A DNA stretch of 20,000 bases. It comes from an uncultured Gemmatimonadota bacterium (GTDB taxonomy: Bacteria; Blakebacterota; Blakebacteria; Blakebacterales; Blakebacteraceae). This document shows positions 736-20,000 of this stretch, one piece after another. Made by a program: the position numbers and the translations under genes. The notes beneath the pieces were generated by a model, which saw only the letters and a list, made by a program, of their open reading frames with translations, searched no databases and was not told the DNA's origin. Where the stretch lies: the NCBI GenBank assembly GCA_964576115.1, contig CAZNUA010000018.1:45196-65195 (forward strand). The letters run 5' to 3'. Numbering within the stretch: the first letter of the stretch is position 1; each line of letters opens with the position of its first letter.

Positions 736-2361
736 TCAGGTCTCGTAATCGAACCAGTCGAAAGCGGCAGTGTTGCTACTCTCCTGCCCACCGCCGGTGG
801 CATAGAGACCGAAGTAGACGCCGGTGAATCCTCCGGCTACTTCCGAAGAGAGCCAGCGGCACTCGCCGGTTCCGACCGTCGTGTACGATCCACCCCCGAA
901 ACCGATACTGAAGGTGTAGGACTGCCGGTCGGCGGTGACCTGCAGTCGGACCGTTCCCGGTTCGAGTTCCCGGACCACCGTTTCAGCCCGCAGATCACCG
1001 ATTCGGCGCCGCAGAATGAGGCGGCGCCTTCCGTCGTGCCGGACCACGGCCAGATCGTAGTGATGGGATTCGTTCATGAAGACGGTCAGACCGGCCTCTT
1101 CGCCCTCCCGCTCCGGTTCGAAATTCAGGCGGGTTGAGGCCCGACAGTCGAAATGCTCCTGCCGCCGGCCGAGGAAAGCCGGGGCGCCGCCGTCGTCGAG
1201 GGTCACCGGCTCGCAGCGCAGGGTCAGAGATCCCGGCCGCGTGGTACGTGAATACGCTCCCGGAACCGGGTTGCGGATCGTATTCCATTCCGGACCCGGC
1301 CGATCGCCGTCGAAATCGTCGCGGACCGGTGCCGCCGGCCAGGGATGGGGTTCGAGGTCCGGAGCCGTCATCTCGAACTCGAGTGCCTCGCCGCCGTTGA
1401 TGACCGGCCAGCCGTCGGCGGTCCAGGTCACCGGGGCCAGGAAGGTCTCGCGTCCCAGGTGATGGTAGCCGGCCATCATCCCCATGACCTGGCGAATCCC
1501 GAGGCACACCAGCCACCAGGAGCCGTCATGGGCCTCGAGCAGGTCACCGTGACCGACGGCCTGGATCGGGTGGGTGACCCGGTGGCGGTGAGTGAGGATC
1601 GGATTGTGGGGGCAGCTTTCGTACGGGCCGGTCACCGAACGACTGCGGGCGATGACGATCATGTGTCCCCGGTGAGTTCCCCCCTCGGCCGCCAGCAGGT
1701 AGTAGAAGCCCTCCCGTTGGTACAGATGCGGGGCTTCGACGTAGGGGTCCTCGAGACCGGTGAAGATCAGGTGCGGCTGCCCCAGAAGTTCGCCCCGTCC
1801 GGGATCGAGCCGCCGGGTGACGATCCCCCCCCGCTCCCAGTCGTTGCGGGTGAACCAACAGGTGCCGTCGGTATCCCAGAACAGGTCGGGATCGAACTGC
1901 GGGCCGGCGACGGGAACCGGTTCCGACCACTCCCCGGCGGGATCCTCGGCGGTGACGTAGAAGTGCCCGCGCCCGCCCACCAGGGTGGTGATCAGCCAGA
2001 ATCGTCCGGCGTGATGGCGCAGGGTGGGGGCGAAGATGCCGTACGAACTCCTGATGCCCTCCAGCGGCAGCTGACTCGGGCGGGTCAGCGCGTGGCCGAT
2101 CGGGCGCCAGTGCACCAGGTCGCGGCTGTGGTAGAGCGGCACCCCGGGGAAATATTCGAAACTGCTGGTGGCCAGATAATACTCCCCGCCGACCCGGCAG
2201 ATGCTCGGATCGGGATGGAAACCGGGAATGATCGGGTTGGTGAAGGTGGTCACGGTCTGTTCTCCGGCAGCTCGGTCCGGGGCGGGTGATCCGTGCCGCC
2301 GGCCGAGCCCCAGACCCATCATCCCGGCGGCTGAGAGCTGCAGGAAACCTCGCCGTTTCAT
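736..2361 (-). CDS. Glycoside hydrolase family 43 (beta-xylosidase/arabinofuranosidase) with C-terminal beta-sandwich, Tat-exported
   Basis: NPIIPGFHPDPSI, ATSSFEYFPGVP, IFAPTLR, FDPDLF, VEAPH, AAEGGT, HLGRET and a C-terminal GGFTG motif. N-terminal MKRRGFLQ twin-arginine motif. Confidence 0.95.
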   Translation of the reverse strand: MKRRGFLQLSAAGMMGLGLGRRHGSPAPDRAAGEQTVTTFTNPIIPGFHPDPSICRVGGEYYLATSSFEYFPGVPLYHSRDLVHWRPIGHALTRPSQLPLEGIRSSYGIFAPTLRHHAGRFWLITTLVGGRGHFYVTAEDPAGEWSEPVPVAGPQFDPDLFWDTDGTCWFTRNDWERGGIVTRRLDPGRGELLGQPHLIFTGLEDPYVEAPHLYQREGFYYLLAAEGGTHRGHMIVIARSRSVTGPYESCPHNPILTHRHRVTHPIQAVGHGDLLEAHDGSWWLVCLGIRQVMGMMAGYHHLGRETFLAPVTWTADGWPVINGGEALEFEMTAPDLEPHPWPAAPVRDDFDGDRPGPEWNTIRNPVPGAYSRTTRPGSLTLRCEPVTLDDGGAPAFLGRRQEHFDCRASTRLNFEPEREGEEAGLTVFMNESHHYDLAVVRHDGRRRLILRRRIGDLRAETVVRELEPGTVRLQVTADRQSYTFSIGFGGGSYTTVGTGECRWLSSEVAGGFTGVYFGLYATGGGQESSNTAAFDWFDYET

Positions 2362-2379
2362 ATCAACCCGGTCGATCCT

Positions 2380-3519
2380 TCATCGCAGGGCATACCCCTC
2401 CAGCCATTCCGAGCCCCATTTCCCGCTCCGGGTCGAGATCGTCATGATCGAGCTCCCCGGAGAGAGCCGGCGGTAGAGACTCTCGGTCACGGTTATCTTC
2501 TCGGTCTGTTGTCCCGCGCGCCACGACTGGACGATGGCGTGGTAGCTCTCGTCATCGTCGGAGGTGCTGATATACCTGTCCACGACTCTCACCTCGTGTT
2601 CGATAGCGGGCGAGGTATCGAGAGCGCCGTTGGTCCAGATCTTTACGCCGGCGCCGGCCAGCGGAAAACCGAAAAGGGCAAGCAGAGCAACCAGAAAGAA
2701 CTCCCGGTGCGAGGCGGAGCGGCCTTTGAGCAGGGAGAAGGCGAAGTAGAGAAAGAGCAGGAACAGGGGGATGCTGAGCAGGAGCCCGCTCAGTGCCAGG
2801 GGCCAGCCATCGAGCGGGGTATAGGTTGTCAGACCGATCACGAGGGCCGCGACGCCGAGCAGGTCGACGGCGATCGGGATTGCGAAGGCGACCACCCGGC
2901 GGGCTTTCCAGCCCGATTCGGAGCTGGTGATCATGAAGGCCTCGGGCAGGCTGGCGTGCAGTCTGACGAGCAGCCCGGCGACCTGCTGCAGTCTAGCCCG
3001 ATCCATGTCCCGCTTGTGCCGGAAGGGCGTCCAGACCGACTTGAGCGCTTTCCGGTTCAACTCGATCGAGGTGAAGCCGAGGTCGTGAATCTCGCGGATC
3101 AACTGCCGTGTCGCCGAAGAACCCAGCACGGTTCGCATGTATTCGGTGGCGCTGCTGGTGATGTAAAAGGTCTCGTCGAACTCGGGGTCGCCGGTCTTGA
3201 GCTCCACGTTCAGGCCGAGCTTTTCGGCGAAGCGGTCGAAACCGGACTCTCGTGACACTTTGAAGGTCACCGTCGAGGGATGAGCCACCTTGACGGTGTA
3301 GGAGGAAGGGGAGTTCTTCGAACCGGGGTGGTAGTGGTAGGAGTAGGCGACTCCGTCGTGTTCGCCGCTGCCGTTGCGGGGGAACCCCTCCTCCTCCCCG
3401 CCGCCCGCAAAGAGTCCTCCCGCCGACTGCCTCCGCTTCAGAATCACCACCAGGATGGCCGCTGTGATACCGATCGAAACGACCATCATCAGGATGATGA
3501 AGATCATTGGATTGTCCAT
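2380..3519 (-). CDS. Uncharacterised integral membrane protein
   Basis: 379 aa ORF with GGAGG RBS. One N-terminal TM, a ~170 aa soluble region, three further TMs and a beta-rich C-terminus. Confidence 0.8.
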   Translation of the reverse strand: MDNPMIFIILMMVVSIGITAAILVVILKRRQSAGGLFAGGGEEEGFPRNGSGEHDGVAYSYHYHPGSKNSPSSYTVKVAHPSTVTFKVSRESGFDRFAEKLGLNVELKTGDPEFDETFYITSSATEYMRTVLGSSATRQLIREIHDLGFTSIELNRKALKSVWTPFRHKRDMDRARLQQVAGLLVRLHASLPEAFMITSSESGWKARRVVAFAIPIAVDLLGVAALVIGLTTYTPLDGWPLALSGLLLSIPLFLLFLYFAFSLLKGRSASHREFFLVALLALFGFPLAGAGVKIWTNGALDTSPAIEHEVRVVDRYISTSDDDESYHAIVQSWRAGQQTEKITVTESLYRRLSPGSSIMTISTRSGKWGSEWLEGYALR

Positions 3520-9894: not shown

Positions 9895-10479
9895 ATGAGC
9901 AGCGACTTCACCGACATACGCCGACGTCTGGCCGCCCGCCGGCCCCGGCGGGCCGAGATGGACGGCCGGATCCCGGCCGCCGTGGCTGCTGTGCTGGTCG
10001 AAGGGGAAGAGGGATTGGAGATCCTGCTGATCAAGCGTAGCGAGCGCGAAGGCGATCCCTGGTCGGGTCAGATGGCCATGCCCGGCGGCCGCAGGGAACC
10101 CGAAGATGCCGACCTGCTCGAAACCGCCATCCGCGAGACCCGCGAAGAGACCGGGGTAGCTCTCTCGGACGCCGACCTGCTCGGCGAGCTGGACGACCTG
10201 AGCCCCGCGCACGAACACCTGCCTCCCATCCTGGTCCGGCCCTACGTCTTCGGTCTTCCTGTCCGCCCGCCGGCACACGCCCGCGATGAAGTCGATCTGG
10301 TTCTCTGGGTGCCCCTGCGCCGGCTGCGGGAGAGCCTGCAGGAAGAAGAGATCACCGTTCGGGAGTTCAACCTGAGGGCCCCCGGCTACCGGCTCGGAGA
10401 GCATTTTGTCTGGGGTCTGACCGAACGGATGCTCACGCCCTTCCTGGCCCTGCTCGACCTGCCCGCCCCCTTGGACTGA
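9895..10479 (+). CDS. CoA pyrophosphatase, Nudix family (NudL-like)
   Basis: AAVAAVL, LLIKRS..WSGQMAMPGG plus Nudix box ETAIRETREETG, C-terminal VWGLT; AGGAG RBS. Confidence 0.92.
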   Translation: MSSDFTDIRRRLAARRPRRAEMDGRIPAAVAAVLVEGEEGLEILLIKRSEREGDPWSGQMAMPGGRREPEDADLLETAIRETREETGVALSDADLLGELDDLSPAHEHLPPILVRPYVFGLPVRPPAHARDEVDLVLWVPLRRLRESLQEEEITVREFNLRAPGYRLGEHFVWGLTERMLTPFLALLDLPAPLD

Positions 10480-10488
10480 CGCGGCGGC

Positions 10489-12189
10489 TCAGAGCTCGCA
10501 CTCGCTCCCCGGTCCTGCAGTCACCCCCGCAACCTTCGCTCCCGTCTTGTCGCGGGTATACGTGCCCGGTGTAAACCGGGCGGCGGTGAAGACCGGACCG
10601 TCTACGCAGGCCCGCTCCCCCGACGGGGTCGAGCATTTTCCACAGATCCCGATTCCGCAACTCGTCATCCGCTCCACCAGGTGGTGGATCTGCTCCGGAT
10701 CGGCGTAGCGTCGGGCGATCGCGTCCACCCCGGCCATGGCCACTTCGGGACCGCAGGTAAAGAAGAGGGCGCCGGCGGGGGGATCATCGGCCAGATGCTC
10801 GGCGAGCAGTTCGGTCACCAATCCCGCAAAGCCGCGGCTACCGTCGTCGGTGGAAACCGCTACCGGCCCGAGGGCCTGCAGTTCCTCGAGGTAGACCAGT
10901 TCGGCCGAAGTCGTGGCGCCCACCACGATCCGTTTCGGGCCCTCGTGACACCGGGCGGCGTGATGGACCGGGGCGATTCCGCACCCCGCGCCCACAAAGA
11001 CGACCTCCCGCCCGGCCGGCAGCTCGAAGGCCCCGCCGTAGGGGCCGCGGATACGCACGATGCTGTTGGGGACCAGTTCGAAGACCTTCTCGGTCATCGG
11101 TCCGACCCGGCGCACGACCAGTTCGAGCCCGGAGCCGCAGGCCGCGACCGAAAAGGGCCGGGCCAGTCCGGTTCCGAGCTTGAGAAAGACGAACTGCCCC
11201 GTTGCGGCCTCCAGATCCTCGTAAAAACGGATCCGGCGCAGCTTGGGGCCGTAGTCGGTCACCGCAGCTACGGTGAAGGGGCGGTAAGTCATCAGCGGGC
11301 GGTCGAGGGTCAGTTCGGCGGCCGAGTCGGTCCCTTCGGCCAGGTCGGTTTCGAGCCGCTGGAAGTATTCCCGGATCCCGGCCGAGTCGAGGCCGCCCAG
11401 AGACGAACCGATAGCGTAGAAGAAGCCCGGATCTATGTCGTCGAGCCGGCGGATGTCGGCCGCGCCCCGGATGCCGCCCATGACGATGAAGGGCACCCCG
11501 GTCACCGCTCTGAGCCGGCGGACGGTGTCGAGGGTAACGGGGAAAATCGGGGGCCCCGAGAGCCCTCCGAAACCGTTGGTCAGCTCGGGATTCGGGCCTC
11601 CCAGGGTATTGATGGCCGACAGGGCGTCGGCCCCGGCTTCGACTGCGGCCCGGGCGACCTCTTCGAGGCGCTCCACACCGGCATTGAGCTTGACCACCAG
11701 GGGCCGCGGGCACACCCGCCGGACCGCCGCCACGATCCCGGCCACGCACTCGGGATCGGAGCCGATCAGAATGCCCCCCTTCTCGACATGCGGGCAGGAG
11801 ACGTTGATCTCGATCCCGTCCACATCTCCGGCCGCTTCGAAAGCCGCTGCGGCCTGCGCGAAACCCGCCTCGCTGCTCTCCCCGATCTGGGCCAGCAGGA
11901 AGACATCGGGCGGAGCGCTCGCCCGCAGAGCCCGGAAGCTCTCCACCATCGGTTCCAGGCCCGGATTGGCATAGCCGACCGCGTTCCAGAGAGCGGTCGG
12001 AGCGGGTTGAGTGAGAATGTCCTCGGCGTACCCCGTGCGCGGTTCGATTGTCGTGCTCTTGCCCACGAAGAAACCCAGTTGAGGGATGTTTTCGAGCATC
12101 CACCGGGCGGTGTCGTCGTTGGTGGCGATTACTCCCGAGGGGAAGCCGAACCGTCCGCGCACCTGTTTCCCGAGCAAGGTGTATGACAC
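10489..12189 (-). CDS. pyrD: Fused class 1B dihydroorotate dehydrogenase: catalytic PyrD domain plus electron-transfer PyrK domain
   Basis: N-half has KSTT.EPR.G, NAVG.ANPG, EINVSCPH, VKL, INT, GGLSG, MGGI. C-half has RPFS, RGPYG, VGAGCGIAP, TDDGS.G, CGPE..M and CGIGICGKC-X9-C. GTG start at 12189 after AGGAG. Confidence 0.92.
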   Translation of the reverse strand: MSYTLLGKQVRGRFGFPSGVIATNDDTARWMLENIPQLGFFVGKSTTIEPRTGYAEDILTQPAPTALWNAVGYANPGLEPMVESFRALRASAPPDVFLLAQIGESSEAGFAQAAAAFEAAGDVDGIEINVSCPHVEKGGILIGSDPECVAGIVAAVRRVCPRPLVVKLNAGVERLEEVARAAVEAGADALSAINTLGGPNPELTNGFGGLSGPPIFPVTLDTVRRLRAVTGVPFIVMGGIRGAADIRRLDDIDPGFFYAIGSSLGGLDSAGIREYFQRLETDLAEGTDSAAELTLDRPLMTYRPFTVAAVTDYGPKLRRIRFYEDLEAATGQFVFLKLGTGLARPFSVAACGSGLELVVRRVGPMTEKVFELVPNSIVRIRGPYGGAFELPAGREVVFVGAGCGIAPVHHAARCHEGPKRIVVGATTSAELVYLEELQALGPVAVSTDDGSRGFAGLVTELLAEHLADDPPAGALFFTCGPEVAMAGVDAIARRYADPEQIHHLVERMTSCGIGICGKCSTPSGERACVDGPVFTAARFTPGTYTRDKTGAKVAGVTAGPGSECEL

Positions 12190-12232
12190 CGCTCCTGCCT
12201 CCCTTTCCCGTCCTCCGGTTCCCGGTTGCCTC

Positions 12233-12997
12233 TCAGTCGCCCTGTTGATCGAGGGCTTCGGCGATATCATCGAGGACCTCACCGGCCGCCGCTTGCTGAT
12301 CGGCGGCGGCGGTGATAGCCCGCCCGATCACGAGCAGCGACGAACCGGCGGCAACCGCCCGACCCGGACTCATGACCCGTTTCTGGTCCTCCCCGGCCGG
12401 GGTGGTCGTGCCCCGGATCCCCGGGGTGACGTACATGAAACCGGGTTCGAGTTCGGGGCGCAGGGTCTCCAGGTCGAGAGCCGAACAGACGATCCCGTCC
12501 AGACCGGCGGTAGCACTCAGATGTGCCAGCCGCAGGACCTGGGTCTCGAGATCGCCCGGCACGCCGCATTCGGTGTTCAGGATCTCTTCGTCGATGCTGG
12601 TCAGCACGGTTACGGCAACGATCTTCGGGCGCCGACGGCCGGCTCCGGCTGCGCTCTCGGCTCCCTCGCGGGCCGCTTCCATCATCGCCCGCCCCCCCGC
12701 GGCGTGTACGTTGAACAGGCTGACGCCGAGTTCGGCCGCGGCCCGGGCCGCCCCGCGCACCGTATTGGGGATGTCGTGGTATTTCAGGTCGAGGAAAACC
12801 CCGCTGCCGGACCGATGGACTTCATCGATCACCGCCGGCCCGAACCGGGTATACGATTCCTTGCCGATCTTGAAGATGCCGACGAAAGAGCCGAGCAGTT
12901 CCAGCCGCTCCCGGATATCGGCCAGGCTGTCGAGGCCGTCCAGGGGCAGACAGACCATCGCCCGGGCCGCTTCCCGGGCTGCTGAGAGCTGGCTCAC
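12233..12997 (-). CDS. pyrF: Orotidine-5'-phosphate decarboxylase
   Basis: FLDLKYHDIPNT, NVHAAGG, AVTVLTS, TPGIR, DQKRVMSP, VIGRAIT; GTG start after AGGAG. Confidence 0.97.
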   Translation of the reverse strand: MSQLSAAREAARAMVCLPLDGLDSLADIRERLELLGSFVGIFKIGKESYTRFGPAVIDEVHRSGSGVFLDLKYHDIPNTVRGAARAAAELGVSLFNVHAAGGRAMMEAAREGAESAAGAGRRRPKIVAVTVLTSIDEEILNTECGVPGDLETQVLRLAHLSATAGLDGIVCSALDLETLRPELEPGFMYVTPGIRGTTTPAGEDQKRVMSPGRAVAAGSSLLVIGRAITAAADQQAAAGEVLDDIAEALDQQGD

Positions 12998-13018
12998 GTT
13001 CCGGCTCCTTTCCACCGC

Positions 13019-13702
13019 TCACTCGACTTTCGGAAACCCGTGCTTCTCGCCCCAGCCGAAGGGATCGCGGCGCCACTCGTCGAGCAGGGCGAGCTCGTCG
13101 TCGGTAAAACTGCCGCTCTCGCGGGCGGTGGCGAGCAGAACATCGAAAGTCAGCAGAGAACGGACCGTGCAGGGGGGCTCGAGGGCCCCAAAGGCTTCGG
13201 CGGCCCGCTCCAGACCGTAGCTGAAGATCGCGAAGCAGTGATCGGCACGCCCGTTGGCCTCGCGCACGGCCTCGACCGCGCGGGCCGAACTGCCCCCGGT
13301 CGAAACCAGGTCCTCGATCACCACCACCCGCCGTCCTTCCAGATCGCGGTCGGCATCGATCCCCTCGATGCGGTTCTTCAGACCGTGCCCCTTCGGTTTA
13401 TCCCGGATGTAGATGAAGGGCAGGGAGAGGTGGTCGGCCAGAGAAGCGCCGTGGGGGATCCCGGCCGTGGCTGTGCCGGCGACTACCTCCGGATCGGCCC
13501 CGGCCCCGGCGATGAGATCGGCCAGGCCGGCCACGATCACCTTCCGTATCCCGGGATGGAAGAGAAACATACGGTTGTCGTTGTAGATCGGCATGCGGTA
13601 ACCCGAAGCCCACTGAAAGGGATCCCCGGGACTCAACTTGATGGCGCCGATCCGCAGACCCTCGCCAGCGATGATGCGTCCGATCTCGTCGATGGTCCTC
13701 AA
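13019..13702 (-). CDS. pyrE: Orotate phosphoribosyltransferase
   Basis: PFQWASG..PIYNDNR, GTATAGIP, IRDKPKGHG, PRPP motif VVIEDLVSTGGS; TTG start at 13702 after GGAGGAGG. Confidence 0.96.
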   Translation of the reverse strand: MRTIDEIGRIIAGEGLRIGAIKLSPGDPFQWASGYRMPIYNDNRMFLFHPGIRKVIVAGLADLIAGAGADPEVVAGTATAGIPHGASLADHLSLPFIYIRDKPKGHGLKNRIEGIDADRDLEGRRVVVIEDLVSTGGSSARAVEAVREANGRADHCFAIFSYGLERAAEAFGALEPPCTVRSLLTFDVLLATARESGSFTDDELALLDEWRRDPFGWGEKHGFPKVE

Positions 13703-13730
13703 CCCTCCTCCGCCCGGGCGGGCTCGGCGT

Positions 13731-13759
13731 ATTGTACGCCTTCGGGCCGGAGGGTCCAA
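13731..13759 (-). promoter_or_regulatory. Sigma70-type promoter of the pyrE-pyrF-pyrD cluster
   Basis: TTGGAC-N17-TACAAT about 29 nt upstream of the pyrE start. Confidence 0.6.
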
Positions 13760-13797
13760 CCGCGATTCAAGCGGCCGGCGGCGATTGCCCCGGGGGT

Positions 13798-15111
13798 TCA
13801 GGCGGGCGGGGGGATCTGGAGTCGATAGCGGCGCACGATCGGCCGGCCCTCGTCGTCTACGGTCAGGCAGATGAAAGAGTCGCCTTCGATGACAGGCTCC
13901 GGTTGCGACGCAAAGCCTTCCGGCACGGGCACCCGCCCCAGGTAGCGGCCGGTTGCCTCCTCGAAGACCTCGAACCAGGTGTCCTCGGCCCAGGCCGGGG
14001 AGCGTTCCCACCCGCGCCAGTCGTCGGGTTCGGTCCAGCCCTCGACCGGCCGGCCCTCGCCGGTGCGAAGTACCCAGAGGCGACCGCTGCGGTCGGGGAT
14101 GACGGCGGCGTACCACGGTTTGGTGTCCGGGATCTGGGGCCCGTTCCAGGCCCAGCCGGGCCGGAAGTGCCGCATGATGGCCTGAACCCGGCGCGTGTAC
14201 CACGCCTTCTCGGTTCCAAGCACCCGGACCGGCTCGGCGGTGCGCTCGATGACGGTGCGCCGGCCGTCAGGGTAGTGGACCTCGAAGCGATAGTCAGCTG
14301 CATAGCCGGTGATGAGAGCGCCCTCCCAGGTCAGGCTCCAGACCTCCTGGGGACCGAAGGGCACCGGCTCGGGGCGGTAGTTCCCCTGCTCATCGGCCAC
14401 GGCGGTCAGAATAAAGTGCTCGTGTTCGTATTCGGGCAGGCGCAGGGTGTCGATGATGGCGCCGGTTGCATCGAGGGCGAAGAAAATATAGGTGTTCACG
14501 TACCCCAGGTCGGTCTCGGGTGCCGGACGGTAGGTGAATTGCGTTACGATCGGCACTCCGGTACGGGTGACGCGCAGCAGCAGGTTCGATCCGCTCAACC
14601 CTCCCTGCAGACCGGGGTGCAGGGTCTCGAGGTACTCCCCCTCGAGGGTGAAGCGGTGCAGGATGCCGCCCACCCCCTCGCGCACGATCAGAAGCTCCTT
14701 GACCGGATCGATCCCCACATCGGTCGGCCAGATCAGTTCGCCCGGCCCGCGGCCCTGGCGGCCGATGTTCCCGACGTGGTTCCCGGCCCGGTCGTACACC
14801 TTGATGGTGTAATAGGAAGCATCGCAGATGTAGACCCGGTCGGCGGTGGCGTCGATACCGACAACTTCTCCGAGCAGGTCGTGTTCGCCCCGGGTTTCGG
14901 TCCCGATGGCGGCTTCTTCGATCAGACGTCCCTCGCCGCTCCAGACCGAACCCCCGGTGGTCCGGACGATCAGGGTGGTTCCCTCGGTGGTCGTCTCGCC
15001 CTGCCAGTCACCGGTCTGCCCGTTACTCTGCGGGGCGGCGTTGCAGGCGGTCAGGAGGATCAGCATCCCGATCGAGGTGATGAGCCGTTCGTGCTGAAAA
15101 CGGGATGTCAT
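13798..15111 (-). CDS. 6-bladed beta-propeller (NHL/DUF5128-like) lipoprotein
   Basis: AAGGAG RBS before ATG 15111; lipobox LLTAC; IKVYDRAG..VGNIGRQGRGPGEL..P repeat motif; DRSGRLWV. Confidence 0.85.
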   Translation of the reverse strand: MTSRFQHERLITSIGMLILLTACNAAPQSNGQTGDWQGETTTEGTTLIVRTTGGSVWSGEGRLIEEAAIGTETRGEHDLLGEVVGIDATADRVYICDASYYTIKVYDRAGNHVGNIGRQGRGPGELIWPTDVGIDPVKELLIVREGVGGILHRFTLEGEYLETLHPGLQGGLSGSNLLLRVTRTGVPIVTQFTYRPAPETDLGYVNTYIFFALDATGAIIDTLRLPEYEHEHFILTAVADEQGNYRPEPVPFGPQEVWSLTWEGALITGYAADYRFEVHYPDGRRTVIERTAEPVRVLGTEKAWYTRRVQAIMRHFRPGWAWNGPQIPDTKPWYAAVIPDRSGRLWVLRTGEGRPVEGWTEPDDWRGWERSPAWAEDTWFEVFEEATGRYLGRVPVPEGFASQPEPVIEGDSFICLTVDDEGRPIVRRYRLQIPPPA

Positions 15112-15231
15112 GATCGTGCTCCTTTTGGAGTGAGACCGGGCGCGTACTCCCTCAAACGAGGTCCCGGGGGTATAGTTCTGCAACAGTGCAGGCAACCGTC
15201 CGGTTCGCAGTCCCTGCCGTCGGCTGATGAT

Positions 15232-17181
15232 TCAGCGTGTCCGCTCCCGCACCGGCAGGACGAGCCGCGAAGGATAGACTGCGTTCCTCTCGACCGTGAT
15301 GGCCGGCATTCCCTGCTCGGGGCAGCGGTGCGCCATCGACTCGTCGTGCCCGGCGATCGCCACGCGGATGGCGTGCCCGGCCCGAAACACGGTGGAGAAG
15401 GGCAGCAGGGTGAGGCCGATCTCGGTGACCTCGCCCGGCACCAGGGGTGCCGCGTCTCCGGTCCTGAAAGTGTGGTAGATCCCGAGCGGCACGAAGGGGG
15501 CCTGCGTTGGATCCTTCTCTTTCCGATGGCGGGCCCGGAGCATCCCCTCGGTGAGATAGGTCACCCTCCCGTCGGGTGAGACGTCCTCCAGATAGACATG
15601 GAAGGCGCCGTCCTCGAAGTCGGATGAAACGTACAGGCGCACCGTCGGACTGCCGGTCATCTCCAGGTCGGCCGGGAGCGGAGCCGAGGTGTAGACCAGG
15701 AGTTTTTCGTCTTCCTCGCGGCGGTCGCCGTAGTGCACCTGATTTCCCATCTGGGCCATCCAGCGGTTTTCGTCGCCGGTCGTGGCGGTGAAATCGACCT
15801 CATAGCGGTCGTTCCCTTGCCGACCCGCGGGGCTGTCGTTCGCCAGGAGGTTGTCCGGCGCGAAGTACCAGGTCCGGTCGGCGATCCCCGCGGGGGGCCA
15901 GGTGGGCGTCACGGTCCACTCGTTCAAGCCGTAAGTGAAGTAGAGGATGCGTCTGGGCTCGCTTTCATTCGTGCCCGCTTTCAGGTGGCGATCGAACCAG
16001 GTGAACATGTCCTCGCAGATGTCGGACGGCGCTTCCTCGAAACCGGGCGCCCGTCCCTGGTCACCGAAGAGATCCACGATGTTGCTCAGCTGATGTCCGG
16101 TCGGCCCGATTACCACTTTCTGGGGTGAAGCGAAGGTCAGATACTTTGACAGCACGCCCTTGGCGACCTCGGCGTCGAGCCATCCGGCCCGGGTGTAGGT
16201 GTTGACGCCCGCCGCTTCGATCCGGGCCCGGTAGGTGTACAGGGCGACGTCCTCCACCGCACAGGCGAACCCGGGCATGGTCTGATCCGTGTACTCGATC
16301 TGCTCGAGATAGGCGTAGAGCCCGGTATTTTCCCGCCTGTCTCGCAAGGCCTGTTCGAAGATCGCGAGGTCGCCGGCCTCCGTCGGTCGGCGAAGACCCC
16401 GGATGAGCGACCGGTAGAACAGTTTCTGGAACAAGGAGAGTTCCTCCACCCCCTCGGAGAGCGCGAAGAGGCTGTCCATATCGTCCAGGTCCATGGCTTT
16501 GATCATCCGCGCCCAGGCGTGGATGAACTCCGCCGAGCCCAGTCCTCCGGGCCGGATGACCGTATAAGGATCGAAATCGGGAGCGACGACGTGGACGGCC
16601 TGCAGGGCGGGATGCCCGGTGGCGCAGCTGACCTCGGCGGTGGTGCCCGAGTAGGAACCGCCCATGGCCCCGACGTGCCCGTTCGACCACGGCTGATCGA
16701 CGATCCAGTCGAAGCCGGCCGAAATGGCGTCGACCTCGTTCGGCGGGTACTCCGCCGGTCTCGGCCCGCTCGACTGGCAGGAACCGGGGGACTGGATCCG
16801 GACGAAGGCATACCCCCTGGTCGTGAATCGCGCCGCCGGGCCCTGATTGAGGTCGGCCTGCAGGCCCCAGGTCTGCAGCACCTGGTAGAGCCAGCCGGGG
16901 TCGTATTCCTCGAGATATCGGGAGGTCTCGATCACCGTCGGGATCCTCTGGCCCGATTCGAGGTCCTCCGGCAGCCAGGCACTGATCCAGATCTGTGTCC
17001 GGGAGTCGAGTGCGAGATAAGTCGTGACGTTCACCGGCCAGCCGGCCGGGATCGTCCTGCGGGTGTAATCGGGCGCGAACGCGATCCCGATTCCGACGAA
17101 CAGGACCAGCACGCCGCCAACCGCACCGAGCCCGATTCCGATCCAATGGAAAATGGATTTCCGGTTCTTCCTGCGACTCAT
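15232..17181 (-). CDS. CocE/NonD family serine hydrolase, membrane anchored
   Basis: WIVDQPWSNGHVGAMGGSYSG (nucleophile), GWLD, IGPTGH, LVYTSAPL..D.EMTG.P, FRAGHAIRVAI; N-terminal TM. Confidence 0.94.
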   Translation of the reverse strand: MSRRKNRKSIFHWIGIGLGAVGGVLVLFVGIGIAFAPDYTRRTIPAGWPVNVTTYLALDSRTQIWISAWLPEDLESGQRIPTVIETSRYLEEYDPGWLYQVLQTWGLQADLNQGPAARFTTRGYAFVRIQSPGSCQSSGPRPAEYPPNEVDAISAGFDWIVDQPWSNGHVGAMGGSYSGTTAEVSCATGHPALQAVHVVAPDFDPYTVIRPGGLGSAEFIHAWARMIKAMDLDDMDSLFALSEGVEELSLFQKLFYRSLIRGLRRPTEAGDLAIFEQALRDRRENTGLYAYLEQIEYTDQTMPGFACAVEDVALYTYRARIEAAGVNTYTRAGWLDAEVAKGVLSKYLTFASPQKVVIGPTGHQLSNIVDLFGDQGRAPGFEEAPSDICEDMFTWFDRHLKAGTNESEPRRILYFTYGLNEWTVTPTWPPAGIADRTWYFAPDNLLANDSPAGRQGNDRYEVDFTATTGDENRWMAQMGNQVHYGDRREEDEKLLVYTSAPLPADLEMTGSPTVRLYVSSDFEDGAFHVYLEDVSPDGRVTYLTEGMLRARHRKEKDPTQAPFVPLGIYHTFRTGDAAPLVPGEVTEIGLTLLPFSTVFRAGHAIRVAIAGHDESMAHRCPEQGMPAITVERNAVYPSRLVLPVRERTR

Positions 17182-17424
17182 CCTGTTTGTCCCTTGTCTG
17201 TCGGCGATACACTGATCCCGGTGGGAGCGTTCCGGGACGCGGGAATATCTGTTCTACGAGGAACACCGGGCCTTCGGTTCCATCAATAGATTCCGCCTGT
17301 GACGGAAAGTATGCCCCCGTTGCGGTTCCTTGCGGAGCAGACCACCCTCATCCGCTGCGGGACCGGTGTCGTATATGGTCATGAGTGATCCGGGGGCACA
17401 TCCCCGGCACCGGAGGAGATCCGG

Positions 17425-18128
17425 ATGTCAGACGTCGAACTGCTGAATCGAGCCCGTACCGGTGACGCCGGGGCCTTTTCGGCCCTGGTCGACCGCCACG
17501 CCGGCGCCGTCTGGAACTACCTGTACCGGTTCATGCCCGCCCGCGCCGACCGTGAGGACCTCTTACAGGATGTTCTCGTCAAGGCCTGGCTCCGGCTGAA
17601 TTCCTACGATCCGGGGCGCGGTGAGTTCCGGACCTGGCTTCTGCGCCTGGCCGCCACCACCTNNNNNNNNNNNNNNNNNNNNNNNNNNNNNNNNNNNNNN
17701 NNNNNNNNNNNNNNNNNNNNNNNNNNNNNNNNNNNNNNNNNNNNNNNNNNNNNNNNNNNNNNGATCCGGGGCGCGGTGAGTTCCGGACCTGGCTTCTGCG
17801 CCTGGCCGCCACCACCTCGCTGGACGAACTCAAACACCGCCGGCGCGAGCGAACCCGGATCGAGTCATATGCCGGAACGGTCGAGAAAGTCACCACACCG
17901 ACTGACGGTTCGGCCGCCTCGCCCGGCTGCGAGGAGATTCGCGCTGCCCTCGAATCACTCTCCGATACCGAGCGACAGGTCGTCGTTCTCTCCTTCTACC
18001 ACGATCTGTCCATGCCCCGGATAGCCGCTCTGCTCGACATCCCCCTGGGGACGATCAAGTCGCGGATGCGCAGTGCCCTGGCGCGCCTGAGAGAGCGGAC
18101 GCCCATACTCAAGGCAGGTGATCTGTGA
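17425..18128 (+). CDS. ECF sigma-70 factor, interrupted by an assembly gap (182 aa once the duplication is collapsed)
   Basis: Region 2 before the gap: GDAGAFSALV, EDLLQDVLVKAW, FRTWLLRLA. Region 4 after it: LESLSDTERQVVVL, IAALLDIPLGTIKSRM. GGAGGA RBS; the stop overlaps the anti-sigma start (TGATG). Confidence 0.9.
17608..17817. other. 100-N scaffold gap (17663-17762) flanked by an identical 55-bp duplication
   Basis: 17608-17662 is identical to 17763-17817. Confidence 0.95.
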
Positions 18129-19360
18129 TGAAGCATCTCGCCGCAGACGAGATCCTCGACTATCTCAAAGGCAGAACCGGCCCCGAAACCTCGGCCCTGA
18201 TCCGTCGGCACCTGGAGGAATGCGAGGTCTGCCGCTGTGAACTCGCCGCCCTGGAAACCACCACGACGTGGCTCGAGGCGTGGCCCGACGAAGCGGTCCC
18301 CGATGACGTCCTCGGGCGGGTCAAAGACACTCTTTCGGGACTCTCGCCGGTGCCGGTTGAGGCCCTGCCCGCCAACGGAAGCGCCCGCCGGTCCGGCCGC
18401 CCGTGGCCGGCCAGGTTCGCCACCGCGGCGGCCGCCATCGTCGCCCTGCTGCTGGTCCAGACCTTTCTCTGGACTCCCTTCGGGACGACCGTCAACGTGC
18501 AGGGCCTGCTCACCCTGGCCCCACCGGCGATGGCCATGACGGCCGGGCAGACCGTACCCGACACGGTGCTGGTGATCACCCTGCATCCCGACGGAACGGT
18601 GAGCGTGCCGCTGATCGAGGGTCAACTCGCGTTCGACGATCTGACCGACCGGCTTCCCGGAATGGTCGGGGCGGACAGGTGGCGGACGATTCTCCTGCTG
18701 GGTTCAGATCCCGAGCATCCGGTCTCGATCCGGCTCGACCGTTTCGAGGCTCTCAAGGAGGCACTCGGAATCGACAACCTGCGTGTCGGAAGCGGGGTCG
18801 TGGGTGTGGCGCCCTTCTTCTGGTCGCATTCTCATCCCACCTGGAGTTTCAGGCGGGGTGTCCCGTTCGTCGCCCGTGGTGACTCCCTCAACCTGCCGGC
18901 GTTTTTCAATGAGTTCGCCGTTCCGGCCAGGGAAGAAGGACTCCAGTGGATCTTCTCTCCGGGCCAGGGCCTGCCCGGTCACTGGGTGTACCGGCCGGAA
19001 GAGGAGGGGGGCTCCATCTTCGCCTTCTCTCCGGGGAGTTGGAGTGTACCGGGACAGTGGTTCGCATCCGGTCCCGGGGCCGGTTCCGATGCGGAAGCAG
19101 TTCTGGAGTACAGCGCCCTGACCGAAGGCAACGGGATCACCGCCGCGATCACCGACGAGGGCCGGATCATCTTCAGCCGGGGAACGGCTGAGGAGAACCT
19201 GGCCGTGGAGCAGCTGCGGGCCCTGGCCGAACTCATCCCCGATCTGCATGTGAAGATCCTCGTTCCCGAAGACCGCCTGGACCAGGCCCGTGAACTCGAG
19301 TTCGCCGCCCGCCAGCTCGGGATCGAGTCGATCGAGATTGTGAAAGTGAAGAAGAAATAG
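18128..19360 (+). CDS. Transmembrane ZAS (zf-HC2) anti-sigma factor with two putative ExbD/TolR-like extracytoplasmic domains
   Basis: HLEECEVC (HxxxCxxC), TM FATAAAAIVALLLVQTFLW, coupled to the ECF sigma gene. The ExbD-like assignment is by eye. Confidence 0.85.
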   Translation: MKHLAADEILDYLKGRTGPETSALIRRHLEECEVCRCELAALETTTTWLEAWPDEAVPDDVLGRVKDTLSGLSPVPVEALPANGSARRSGRPWPARFATAAAAIVALLLVQTFLWTPFGTTVNVQGLLTLAPPAMAMTAGQTVPDTVLVITLHPDGTVSVPLIEGQLAFDDLTDRLPGMVGADRWRTILLLGSDPEHPVSIRLDRFEALKEALGIDNLRVGSGVVGVAPFFWSHSHPTWSFRRGVPFVARGDSLNLPAFFNEFAVPAREEGLQWIFSPGQGLPGHWVYRPEEEGGSIFAFSPGSWSVPGQWFASGPGAGSDAEAVLEYSALTEGNGITAAITDEGRIIFSRGTAEENLAVEQLRALAELIPDLHVKILVPEDRLDQARELEFAARQLGIESIEIVKVKKK

Positions 19361-19474
19361 CCGAACAACCGGAGGGAAGGTCCGGATCCAGAATTTATCT
19401 GGAACGTCCTGAGTGTCACCTGCGCAGGAATGATGATTGCATCCCACCAGGTCCTGGTGTTGAGAAGAGGGTGA

Positions 19475-19527
19475 CATTAGTAAATTAAGGTGTACTCTAG
19501 AACACTCATTAGTTTATTAGAGTGTAC
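19475..19527. repeat. AT-rich imperfect 21-bp direct repeat, two copies 32 bp apart
   Basis: CATTAGTAAATTAAGGTGTAC (19475-19495) vs CATTAGTTTATTAGAGTGTAC (19507-19527), 17/21 identical. Confidence 0.7.
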
Positions 19528-19567
19528 CTGATTATACCAACGCACACATCCGGGGGTGATCGCCGCC

Positions 19568-20000
19568 ATGAAACCGCGCTACATCGCCGAGAGTATCGAA
19601 GCGGATCTCGCCGAGAAGATGGTCTTCGTGGGCGGTCCGCGCCAGGTGGGTAAAACGACACTCGCTCTGTCTCTGCTTGGCCGGGACCAGAATGAATCGT
19701 CGCCGGCATACCTGAACTGGGACTCACTGGCCGACCGTGAGGATATCCTGGCGGCACGGATTCCGGCCGGACAGAAGCGCATCGTTTTCGATGAAGTCCA
19801 CAAGTACGCCCAGTGGCGCAACCTGATGAAGGGACTCTTCGACACAAACAGGTCTTCGGTCGAGTTCCTGGTCACCGGTTCCGCGCGGCTCGACTACTAT
19901 CGCAAGGGTGGTGACTCGCTGCAGGGGCGATATCACTACTATCGCCTGCATCCCTTCTCGGTGATGGAAATCGAATCCGCCCCGGACAACCAGGGAGCCG
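19568..20000 (+). CDS. AAA+ ATPase (AAA_14 / COG1373, usually with DUF4143), 5' part only
   Basis: Not in the ORF track because it runs off the window. Translates as MKPRYIAESI..MVFVGGPRQVGKTT (Walker A), IVFDEVHK (Walker B), LVTGSARL, DSLQGRY..YRLHPFS. Confidence 0.93.
   Translation, partial: MKPRYIAESIEADLAEKMVFVGGPRQVGKTTLALSLLGRDQNESSPAYLNWDSLADREDILAARIPAGQKRIVFDEVHKYAQWRNLMKGLFDTNRSSVEFLVTGSARLDYYRKGGDSLQGRYHYYRLHPFSVMEIESAPDNQGA

Follow-up and report, generated by a model that had tools for sequence, protein, structure and literature searches.

The 20,000 nt window analysed here (contig CAZNUA010000018.1 of assembly GCA_964576115.1, from an uncultured member of the Gemmatimonadota) carries towards its end a unit of two genes, in which the gene of an extracytoplasmic function (ECF) sigma factor is directly followed by that of a membrane-spanning anti-sigma factor. 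The anti-sigma factor consists of a cytoplasmic zinc-binding anti-sigma (ZAS) domain, a single transmembrane helix and two periplasmic domains joined by a linker. The second of these is, on firm support, homologous to the domain that ExbD/TolR proteins have in the periplasm, and the first is, with weaker support, a diverged domain of the same kind. ECF sigma factors paired with ZAS anti-sigma factors are known, and what is new is the ExbD/TolR-like sensor domains on the latter. The best explanation, to which somewhat better than an even chance is given, is an ECF and ZAS anti-sigma unit whose ExbD/TolR-type domains act as an envelope sensor. Its features are as follows (ORF, open reading frame; aa, amino acids; AF2, AlphaFold2; pLDDT, predicted local distance difference test).

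17350..17373, + strand: candidate ECF-type promoter ATCC-N16-CGTA, about 50 nt upstream of the sigma start
17425..18128, + strand: ECF sigma factor gene (Pfam Sigma70_r2 and Sigma70_r4)
18125/18128..19360, + strand: anti-sigma ORF (open frame of 411/410 aa)
18128..18352, + strand: cytoplasmic ZAS domain, class I, aa 1-75 (zf-HC2, family profile, AF2)
18404..18478, + strand: single transmembrane helix, aa 93-117 (AF2 helix 93-115; no acidic residue)
18479..18550, + strand: membrane-proximal linker, aa 118-141 (AF2 pLDDT below 50 for aa 116-141)
18551..18811, + strand: periplasmic domain 1, aa 142-228, probable diverged ExbD/TolR-like fold (AF2, Foldseek, hhalign)
18812..19132, + strand: inter-domain linker, aa 229-335, variable and aromatic-rich (predicted disordered; pLDDT below 50 for aa 230-331)
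19133..19357, + strand: periplasmic domain 2, aa 336-410, ExbD/TolR homologue with basic tail (hhalign, Foldseek, ESM Atlas)

ExbD/TolR-type domains of the anti-sigma factor

The relationship of domain 2 to ExbD/TolR is seen both in sequence profiles and in predicted folds. Against a reference profile of 14 diverse annotated ExbD/TolR sequences (ExbD and TolR of E. coli and the products of 12 plasmid genes), domain 2 gave an hhalign probability of 95.6% (E 1.3e-8) over 74 columns, corresponding to ExbD 60-133, while control comparisons with reversed profiles and 20 column shuffles each did not exceed 0.9%. In a Foldseek search of the PDB with the full-length AF2 model, built from an alignment of 27 sequences, ranks 1-6 were all occupied by ExbD/TolR periplasmic domains, with E-values of 5e-3 to 1.6e-2. 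Domain 2 could be superimposed on the ExbD crystal chains 8vgd_B, 8vgc_A, 8p9r_A and 8p9r_B with target template modelling scores (TMt) of 0.75-0.79 and a root-mean-square deviation (rmsd) of 2.1 Å across 70-71 columns; the TMt values for TolR (5by4) and the nuclear magnetic resonance dimer of ExbD (8pek) were 0.56 and 0.50. Given the looser matches obtained with domain 1 alone (see below), the tight match of the full model is attributed to domain 2. The ESM Atlas model of residues 330-410 likewise matched an ExbD/TolR cluster (TM-score 0.76). Pfam family PF02472, which has a gathering cut-off of 25.4 bits, is matched below this threshold by 11 of 27 relatives, always in the periplasmic-domain register and at best with 24.0 bits (E 4.5e-5). 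Nine of these (P0007, P0008, P0010-P0013, P0017, P0022 and P0023) lie at domain 2, in register at about positions 48-125 of the 128 in the profile, and the other two (P0002 and P0003) at domain 1. In the last strand of domain 2, I402 is aligned with ExbD I130 and I404 with ExbD L132, and these positions are hydrophobic in 96% and 83%, respectively, of 24 sequences.

Domain 1 is more weakly supported as a diverged ExbD/TolR-like domain. Its hhalign probability against the reference profile was 43.8% (E 2.4e-4, 48 columns). With domain 1 alone, the top Foldseek match was ExbD (8pek; E 4.4e-3, TM-scores 0.50/0.48), and other ExbD chains were matched with TMt values of 0.52-0.60 and an rmsd of 4.0-4.5 Å. 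The ESM Atlas model of residues 140-226 fell to an ExbD cluster in which 100% of members carry PF02472 (TM-score 0.53). In addition, the transmembrane helix, membrane-proximal linker and domain 1 taken together are collinear with ExbD 25-134 (hhalign 71.5%, E 3.6e-5). Because the helix and the segment that follows it show no significant similarity to ExbD when taken alone (0.7%, E 0.077), the helix itself is not claimed to be derived from ExbD. When the family profiles of the two domains were compared with each other they aligned at 77% (E 2e-5, 70 columns), so that, judged by their profiles, domains 1 and 2 are more alike than expected by chance. The initial annotation had claimed two ExbD/TolR-like domains in tandem, which is well borne out for domain 2 and less securely for domain 1; the Foldseek comparison that it had proposed ranks ExbD/TolR first both for the full model, through domain 2, and for domain 1 alone.

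The same annotation had described a ZAS domain, a single transmembrane helix and two alpha/beta segments, and AF2 places confident domains where it had put them. Domain 1 is modelled with strands at 147-152, 158-160 and 163-167, a helix at 169-179, strands at 187-192 and 199-202, a helix at 203-213, and strands at 217-220 and 224-227, the last of which is an extra C-terminal strand beyond the final ExbD-like one. Its pLDDT is 86-95 in the full model, and a model of domain 1 alone, made from five sequences, reached a pLDDT of 81.9 and a predicted template modelling score (pTM) of 0.73. Domain 2 is preceded by a helix (321-333) and has strands at 336-341, 347-349 and 352-354, a helix at 356-369, a strand at 374-380, a helix at 381-396 and a strand at 401-407. 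The beta-beta-alpha-beta-alpha-beta pattern first proposed for both segments is roughly right, although AF2 shows more strands than it listed. Columns of domain 1 are filled in all 27 aligned sequences and those of domain 2 in 24. In most relatives, domain 2 ends in a basic tail, (K/R)(K/R)-V-K-K, found in the window at 19334-19357.

The linker between the domains is about 107 aa long in the window protein and ranges from 29 to 145 aa among the 25 relatives in which it comprises at least 25 aa. Of these 25 linkers, 19 contain a P-x-hydrophobic-x-hydrophobic motif; in 500 shuffles the number averaged 11.4 and was 18 at most. The enriched motif recalls the D-box pattern, a resemblance in sequence that may be taken as a lead only. 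A prediction of the complex between domain 1 (aa 140-232) and domain 2 (aa 325-410), made with family alignments, gave a score of 0.00 and a mark of 0.32, and was counted neither for nor against the intramolecular pseudo-dimer that the initial annotation had put forward. The full-length model, with its low pTM (see below), lends this pseudo-dimer no support.

The sigma/anti-sigma unit, its family and its surroundings

The sigma factor gene is interrupted by a 100-N scaffold gap (nt 17663-17762), which gives it a broken appearance and shifts the frame of the listed ORF. Sigma70_r2 is matched before the gap (E 4.8e-16) and Sigma70_r4 after it (E 1.8e-15). An exact 55 nt duplication borders the gap (17608-17662 is identical to 17763-17817), ending exactly at it, and when this duplication is collapsed an ORF of 182 aa results, with 44-53% identity to the sigma factors of three related loci (L002-L004, described below). 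Because the flanks are identical over 55 nt and the collapsed ORF resembles the related sigma factors, the gap is judged to be an assembly artefact and not a sign of a broken gene. The sigma stop codon, TGA at 18126-18128, overlaps by one base the ATG of the anti-sigma gene at 18128, which is also the start used in the database copy of the protein (P0001, 410 aa). From their arrangement, the genes appear to form a two-gene, translationally coupled unit. The ATCC-N16-CGTA element upstream has a single match in the window (chance expectation 0.41) and recurs at the equivalent place before the sigma gene in loci L001 and L002, and L004 carries a degenerate form, AACC-N16-GGTA, upstream of its sigma gene. 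It is a candidate promoter through which the sigma factor may regulate its own gene. A scan of nt 17150-19600 for sigma-70 promoters and terminators returned nothing informative.

The N-terminal domain of the anti-sigma factor places it, on sequence criteria, in class I of the ZAS anti-sigma factors, and it is predicted to bind and inhibit the sigma factor. Pfam zf-HC2 is matched on aa 10-37 with 23.0 bits, barely over its cut-off of 22.2 bits (E 8.3e-5). Conservation of the zinc motif H28-x3-C32-x2-C35 is 90% or more across the 27 aligned sequences, and H3 is conserved in a closer set of ten. The family profile matched the ZAS domains of ChrR (E 1.6e-8), RsiW (3.9e-7), DdvA (1.9e-5) and chain B of 3HUG (2.8e-4) in the PDB, over its first 80 or so positions. 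AF2 models helices at 6-13, 19-31, 33-51 and 59-71 (pLDDT 83-96). Similarity of the window protein to the NCBIfam RsrA model is weak (E 0.002). The original proposal, in which a ZAS anti-sigma factor is paired with an ECF sigma factor, agrees with the zf-HC2 match, the conserved histidine and cysteine residues and the sigma gene directly upstream. The N-terminal H-x3-C-x2-C domain is common to ChrR (2Q1Z, 2Z2S), RsiW (5WUQ), the anti-sigma chain of 3HUG and the window protein, which like them is encoded directly downstream of its cognate ECF sigma gene, and the difference lies in the C-terminal part. In the former proteins it consists of other domains, a cupin in the case of ChrR, and no ExbD-like domain occurs in any of the solved anti-sigma factors matched by the family profile. 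A further candidate model, NCBIfam NF052375 ('anti-sigma factor'), is matched below its cut-off in 26 of the 27 relatives. In eight relatives scanned singly it spans only the ZAS domain and transmembrane helix, in the window protein it extends only to aa 160, where domain 1 starts, and it was set aside as uninformative on the sensor domains.

Relatives of the anti-sigma factor are few. A word-indexed protein search found four proteins only, and an exhaustive search of representatives found 133 at E ≤1e-3, of which 23 were at E ≤1e-10; about 25 relatives, counted as sequence clusters, share the region beyond the transmembrane helix. A profile search of a set of 5.8 billion proteins, limited by its word filter, returned ten proteins, none with a precomputed PF02472 label, and tblastn of the anti-sigma factor against plasmids gave no match. 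The alignment of 27 sequences (A2) includes two doubtful rows. P0024 has the ZAS domain, the transmembrane helix and the start of domain 1, followed by an unrelated C-terminus with an MlaE permease match, so that the predicted protein is probably chimeric or frameshifted. Past the helix, the alignment of P0077 is poor; this row probably carries the only FecR match of the family, a weak one (E 0.0095), and probably belongs to another family. In a tree of the individual domains, based on a short alignment from which these two rows were left out, the domain 1 sequences fall into a single clade (100/100) and those of ExbD/TolR into another (96/94), with domain 2 adjoining the latter without resolved branching. 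From the single clade of domain 1 it follows that the two domains stood in tandem before the family spread.

A single scan of genomes representative of their species, made with a 10-sequence alignment, found four loci (L001-L004), two labelled as Gemmatimonadota and two as 'bacterium' only. In L002, L003 and L004 an ECF sigma gene of 184 aa overlaps the start of the anti-sigma gene by 4 nt. In L001 (locus 1335-3154) the sigma ORF upstream has only 130 aa and the anti-sigma factor is without its first 26 or so residues, and in L004 (locus 10001-11301) the anti-sigma gene is frameshifted (10001-10420 and 10372-11301). The damaged copies in L001 and L004 could reflect assembly errors in these metagenome-assembled genomes (MAGs), or decay. 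The search for this architecture beside ECF genes that had been suggested at the outset thus finds a sigma ORF directly upstream in all four loci, counting the truncated one of L001. The family is a small one, of about 25 sequence clusters, with genome copies found in Gemmatimonadota or unclassified MAGs.

Asp and Glu are both missing from the transmembrane helix of the window protein, as the initial annotation had noted for Asp, and so they are from that of 25 of the 26 relatives that have such a helix. The sole exception, P0022, has an Asp in an insertion before the helix. All 14 of the ExbD/TolR sequences have Asp in the D25 column of ExbD, and the helix core of the anti-sigma family is devoid of Asp and Glu. 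W93, Q111, W115 and P117 reach 90% conservation or more among 27 sequences. The periplasmic end of the helix (nt 18449-18481, aa 108-118) has the motif F/L-Q-x-x-V/I-W-N/S-P-L/F, the most conserved stretch of the family, above either sensor domain. The motif may help to determine intramembrane proteolysis, or it may be where the protein touches a partner in the membrane.

The surroundings of the unit were scanned in the window and in L001-L004 (three sets of 18, 25 and 27 ORFs). No ExbB/TolQ gene (MotA_ExbB), no TonB/TolA gene and no gene for a TonB-dependent receptor was found among the scanned ORFs, whereas a MotA_ExbB-type gene is adjacent to 11 of the 12 plasmid exbD/tolR genes and to both of the E. 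coli genes. There was no FecR match in the window protein and no TonB_dep_Rec or Plug match in the scanned flanks. As the D25-type Asp is absent and no MotA_ExbB gene was found among the ORFs scanned in these five loci, the protein is not a proton-conducting stator subunit. The genes flanking the unit differ between the loci (sulfatases, GH109, M61 and S15 peptidases, GH43, MacB-type permeases, a sodium:solute symporter); they are often degradative or uptake genes, and none is conserved among the loci. Other features of the window are:

12233-13015, - strand: orotidine monophosphate (OMP) decarboxylase, adjoining the 597-aa ORF described below
13019-14203, - strand: phosphoribosyltransferase, adjoining the region of the 597-aa ORF
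13798-15195, - strand: 6-bladed beta-propeller protein (DUF5128-like), upstream of the sigma/anti-sigma pair
15232-17181, - strand: S15 X-Pro dipeptidyl peptidase, upstream of the sigma/anti-sigma pair

The ORF of 597 aa at nt 10489-12282 (- strand) combines dihydroorotate dehydrogenase, NAD-binding and Fe-S domains, the last two of the type found in the electron-transfer subunit of dihydroorotate dehydrogenase B (DHOD-B), and appears to be a fused form.

Proposed sensor role and alternative explanations

What an ExbD-type domain might do on an anti-sigma factor can be approached from the motor proteins. The ExbD homodimer is described as capturing one extended strand of the TonB D-box by beta-strand recruitment, at beta6 and the edge residues 130-134, with L132 required for D-box binding (PMC10907165). 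The ExbD dimer is further described as switching between closed and open states with transient peptidoglycan contact (PMC10771500), and TolR as requiring a rearrangement of its strand-swapped dimer before it can bind peptidoglycan (PMC4646322). A sensor role is proposed for the domains of the anti-sigma factor because the ExbD fold binds strands and peptidoglycan and because domain 2 keeps the hydrophobic residues of the edge strand. The cytoplasmic ZAS domain would hold the sigma factor at the inner membrane, and the ExbD-like domains would face the envelope as sensor, by pairing of the domains, by capture of an extended strand at the edge of the last strand and/or by transient contact with peptidoglycan. 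A change in binding state would then lead to regulated proteolysis or an altered conformation, and the sigma factor so freed would act on its own ATCC-N16-CGTA promoter and on a further regulon. Regulated proteolysis is a route of release in other membrane-bound ZAS anti-sigma factors, and by analogy it is the most likely one here.

Several observations weigh against this explanation, and most of them concern the ExbD/TolR relationship itself. None of the Foldseek matches of the full model or of the domain 1 model reaches E ≤1e-3, the list for domain 1 is mixed with unrelated folds (2f9t at rank 3, ribosomal proteins), and the likeness of domain 1 to ExbD/TolR in sequence is marginal. With both domains, hhalign against about 120 near-identical enterobacterial ExbD sequences and one TolR gave at most 1.6%, which is not significant, a result put down to an undiverse template (ExbD relatives of 86-100% identity only). 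Pfam, one of the means by which the initial annotation had proposed to recognise the domains, gave no PF02472 match in the window protein at E ≤10, so that the resemblance becomes visible only through family profiles and predicted folds. All 11 matches among the 27 relatives are below the cut-off, and the 19 matches of the family profile among PDB sequences (E ≤10) were anti-sigma domains only, with no ExbD/TolR chain. The missing Pfam match, an identity to ExbD of 8-15% in the fold alignments, Foldseek E-values of only 4e-3 to 6e-2 and the mixed matches of domain 1 would all suit a convergent fold, that is, two generic small alpha/beta modules of no ExbD/TolR descent or function. For domain 2 this is unlikely in view of the profile-profile match with its clean reversed and shuffled controls, and it is further opposed by the recurrence of PF02472 in register among the relatives and by two independent structure predictors, which led to ExbD clusters or chains for both domains. 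As an account of the protein, convergence is given a very small chance. Further points against the sensor explanation are the pTM of the full-length model (0.35), with which domains 1 and 2 have no confident mutual packing, and the fact that no protease gene is conserved beside the pair (S15 in the window, M61 near the pair in L004). It also weighs against it that observation covers the architecture and the sigma/anti-sigma pairing, and that the ligand of the domains and the release of the sigma factor are what we infer.

Two other explanations accept the domains and differ as to what is sensed. Sensing might be cytoplasmic, by zinc or redox state at the ZAS domain itself, with the ExbD-like domains merely anchoring or positioning the protein at the cell wall. 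The zinc motif is complete, H3 is conserved as well, the weak RsrA similarity points in the same direction, and contact with peptidoglycan is on record for both ExbD and TolR (PMC10771500; PMC4646322). This explanation is nevertheless thought unlikely, since the conservation of both periplasmic domains and of the motif at the end of the transmembrane helix points to more than anchoring; ChrR and RsiW, the closest solved ZAS matches, are moreover not known as classical thiol switches. Alternatively, in line with the link to Ton/Tol motors suggested by the initial annotation, the sensor might be coupled to a motor, its ExbD-like domains or helix engaging a TonB/TolA strand, ExbD/TolR or an ExbB/TolQ pentamer, in which case the activity of the sigma factor would report the occupancy of the motor or the state of the proton-motive force. 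In favour are the true homology of domain 2, the alignment of I402/I404 with an ExbD edge strand in which L132 is needed for D-box binding (PMC10907165), the collinearity of helix, linker and domain 1 with ExbD and a topology like that of ExbD. It is considered quite improbable, given that no ExbB/TolQ, TonB/TolA or TonB-dependent receptor gene was seen among the scanned ORFs of the five loci, that acidic residues are missing at the D25 position and close to it, and that the helix and the segment after it are not significantly ExbD-like on their own. The same rather low probability is given to a more specific proposal, in which the protein would be an ExbD paralogue turned transcription switch. 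Its paired domains would hold a D-box-like strand, either from its own linker or from TonB/TolA, and competition for the groove would report the Ton/Tol state or the peptide load of the envelope to the ECF sigma factor.

Relation to known systems and significance

The window protein differs in several respects from ExbD/TolR proper (PF02472; 8VGC, 8VGD, 8P9R, 8PEK and 5BY4). The fold is common to both of its domains and homology is detectable for domain 2; the topology is equal (N-terminus inside, one transmembrane helix, periplasmic domain) and the hydrophobic pattern of the last strand is kept. However, the anti-sigma factor is without the transmembrane aspartate and an adjacent ExbB/TolQ gene and scores below the Pfam cut-off, on which grounds it is not a functional member of the ExbD/TolR family. 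It has two domains in each chain, instead of a homodimer of one-domain chains, and the short cytoplasmic tail of ExbD/TolR is replaced by an anti-sigma domain of about 75 aa. In the transpore-helix vWA proteins encoded beside TolQ homologues (PMC12204202), ExbD/TolR modules have also been recombined with other domains. These proteins retain the transmembrane aspartate and the TolQ neighbour and replace the periplasmic domain, whereas the window protein retains the periplasmic domain and is without aspartate or TolQ neighbour. FecR-type anti-sigma factors of cell-surface signalling share the design of an anti-sigma factor that crosses the inner membrane once and carries a sensor in the periplasm, and are a conceptual link between ECF and Ton systems (PMC9249621). 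The window protein has no FecR domain, and there is no gene for a TonB-dependent transducer among its scanned neighbours.

No paper pairing ExbD/TolR-like domains with anti-sigma factors was found in the literature searched, in keeping with the earlier statement that no characterised example was known. None of the terms 'ExbD', 'TolR' and 'PF02472' occurs in the main text of the paper that re-classified the ECF factors (PMC7826278), which lists the anti-sigma domains of each group in its supplements.

For bacteria, pairs of ECF sigma and anti-sigma factors are one of the main ways of sensing the envelope, and the outer domain of the anti-sigma factor sets what is sensed. To our knowledge, the ExbD/TolR domain is otherwise known only from proton-driven envelope motors. 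The family described here shows this domain reused as a proposed sensor module, without the aspartate of the motor or its channel partner, and with its two genes offers a small and defined system in which to find out what such a domain binds outside its motor. If the domains engage TonB/TolA, this would be a new coupling of envelope mechanics to transcription, and if the protein is indeed a switch of the kind proposed, it would represent trans-envelope signalling without a FecR protein or a transducer domain on an outer-membrane receptor. The family adds a type of regulator to the Gemmatimonadota, a phylum in which few signalling systems have been studied.

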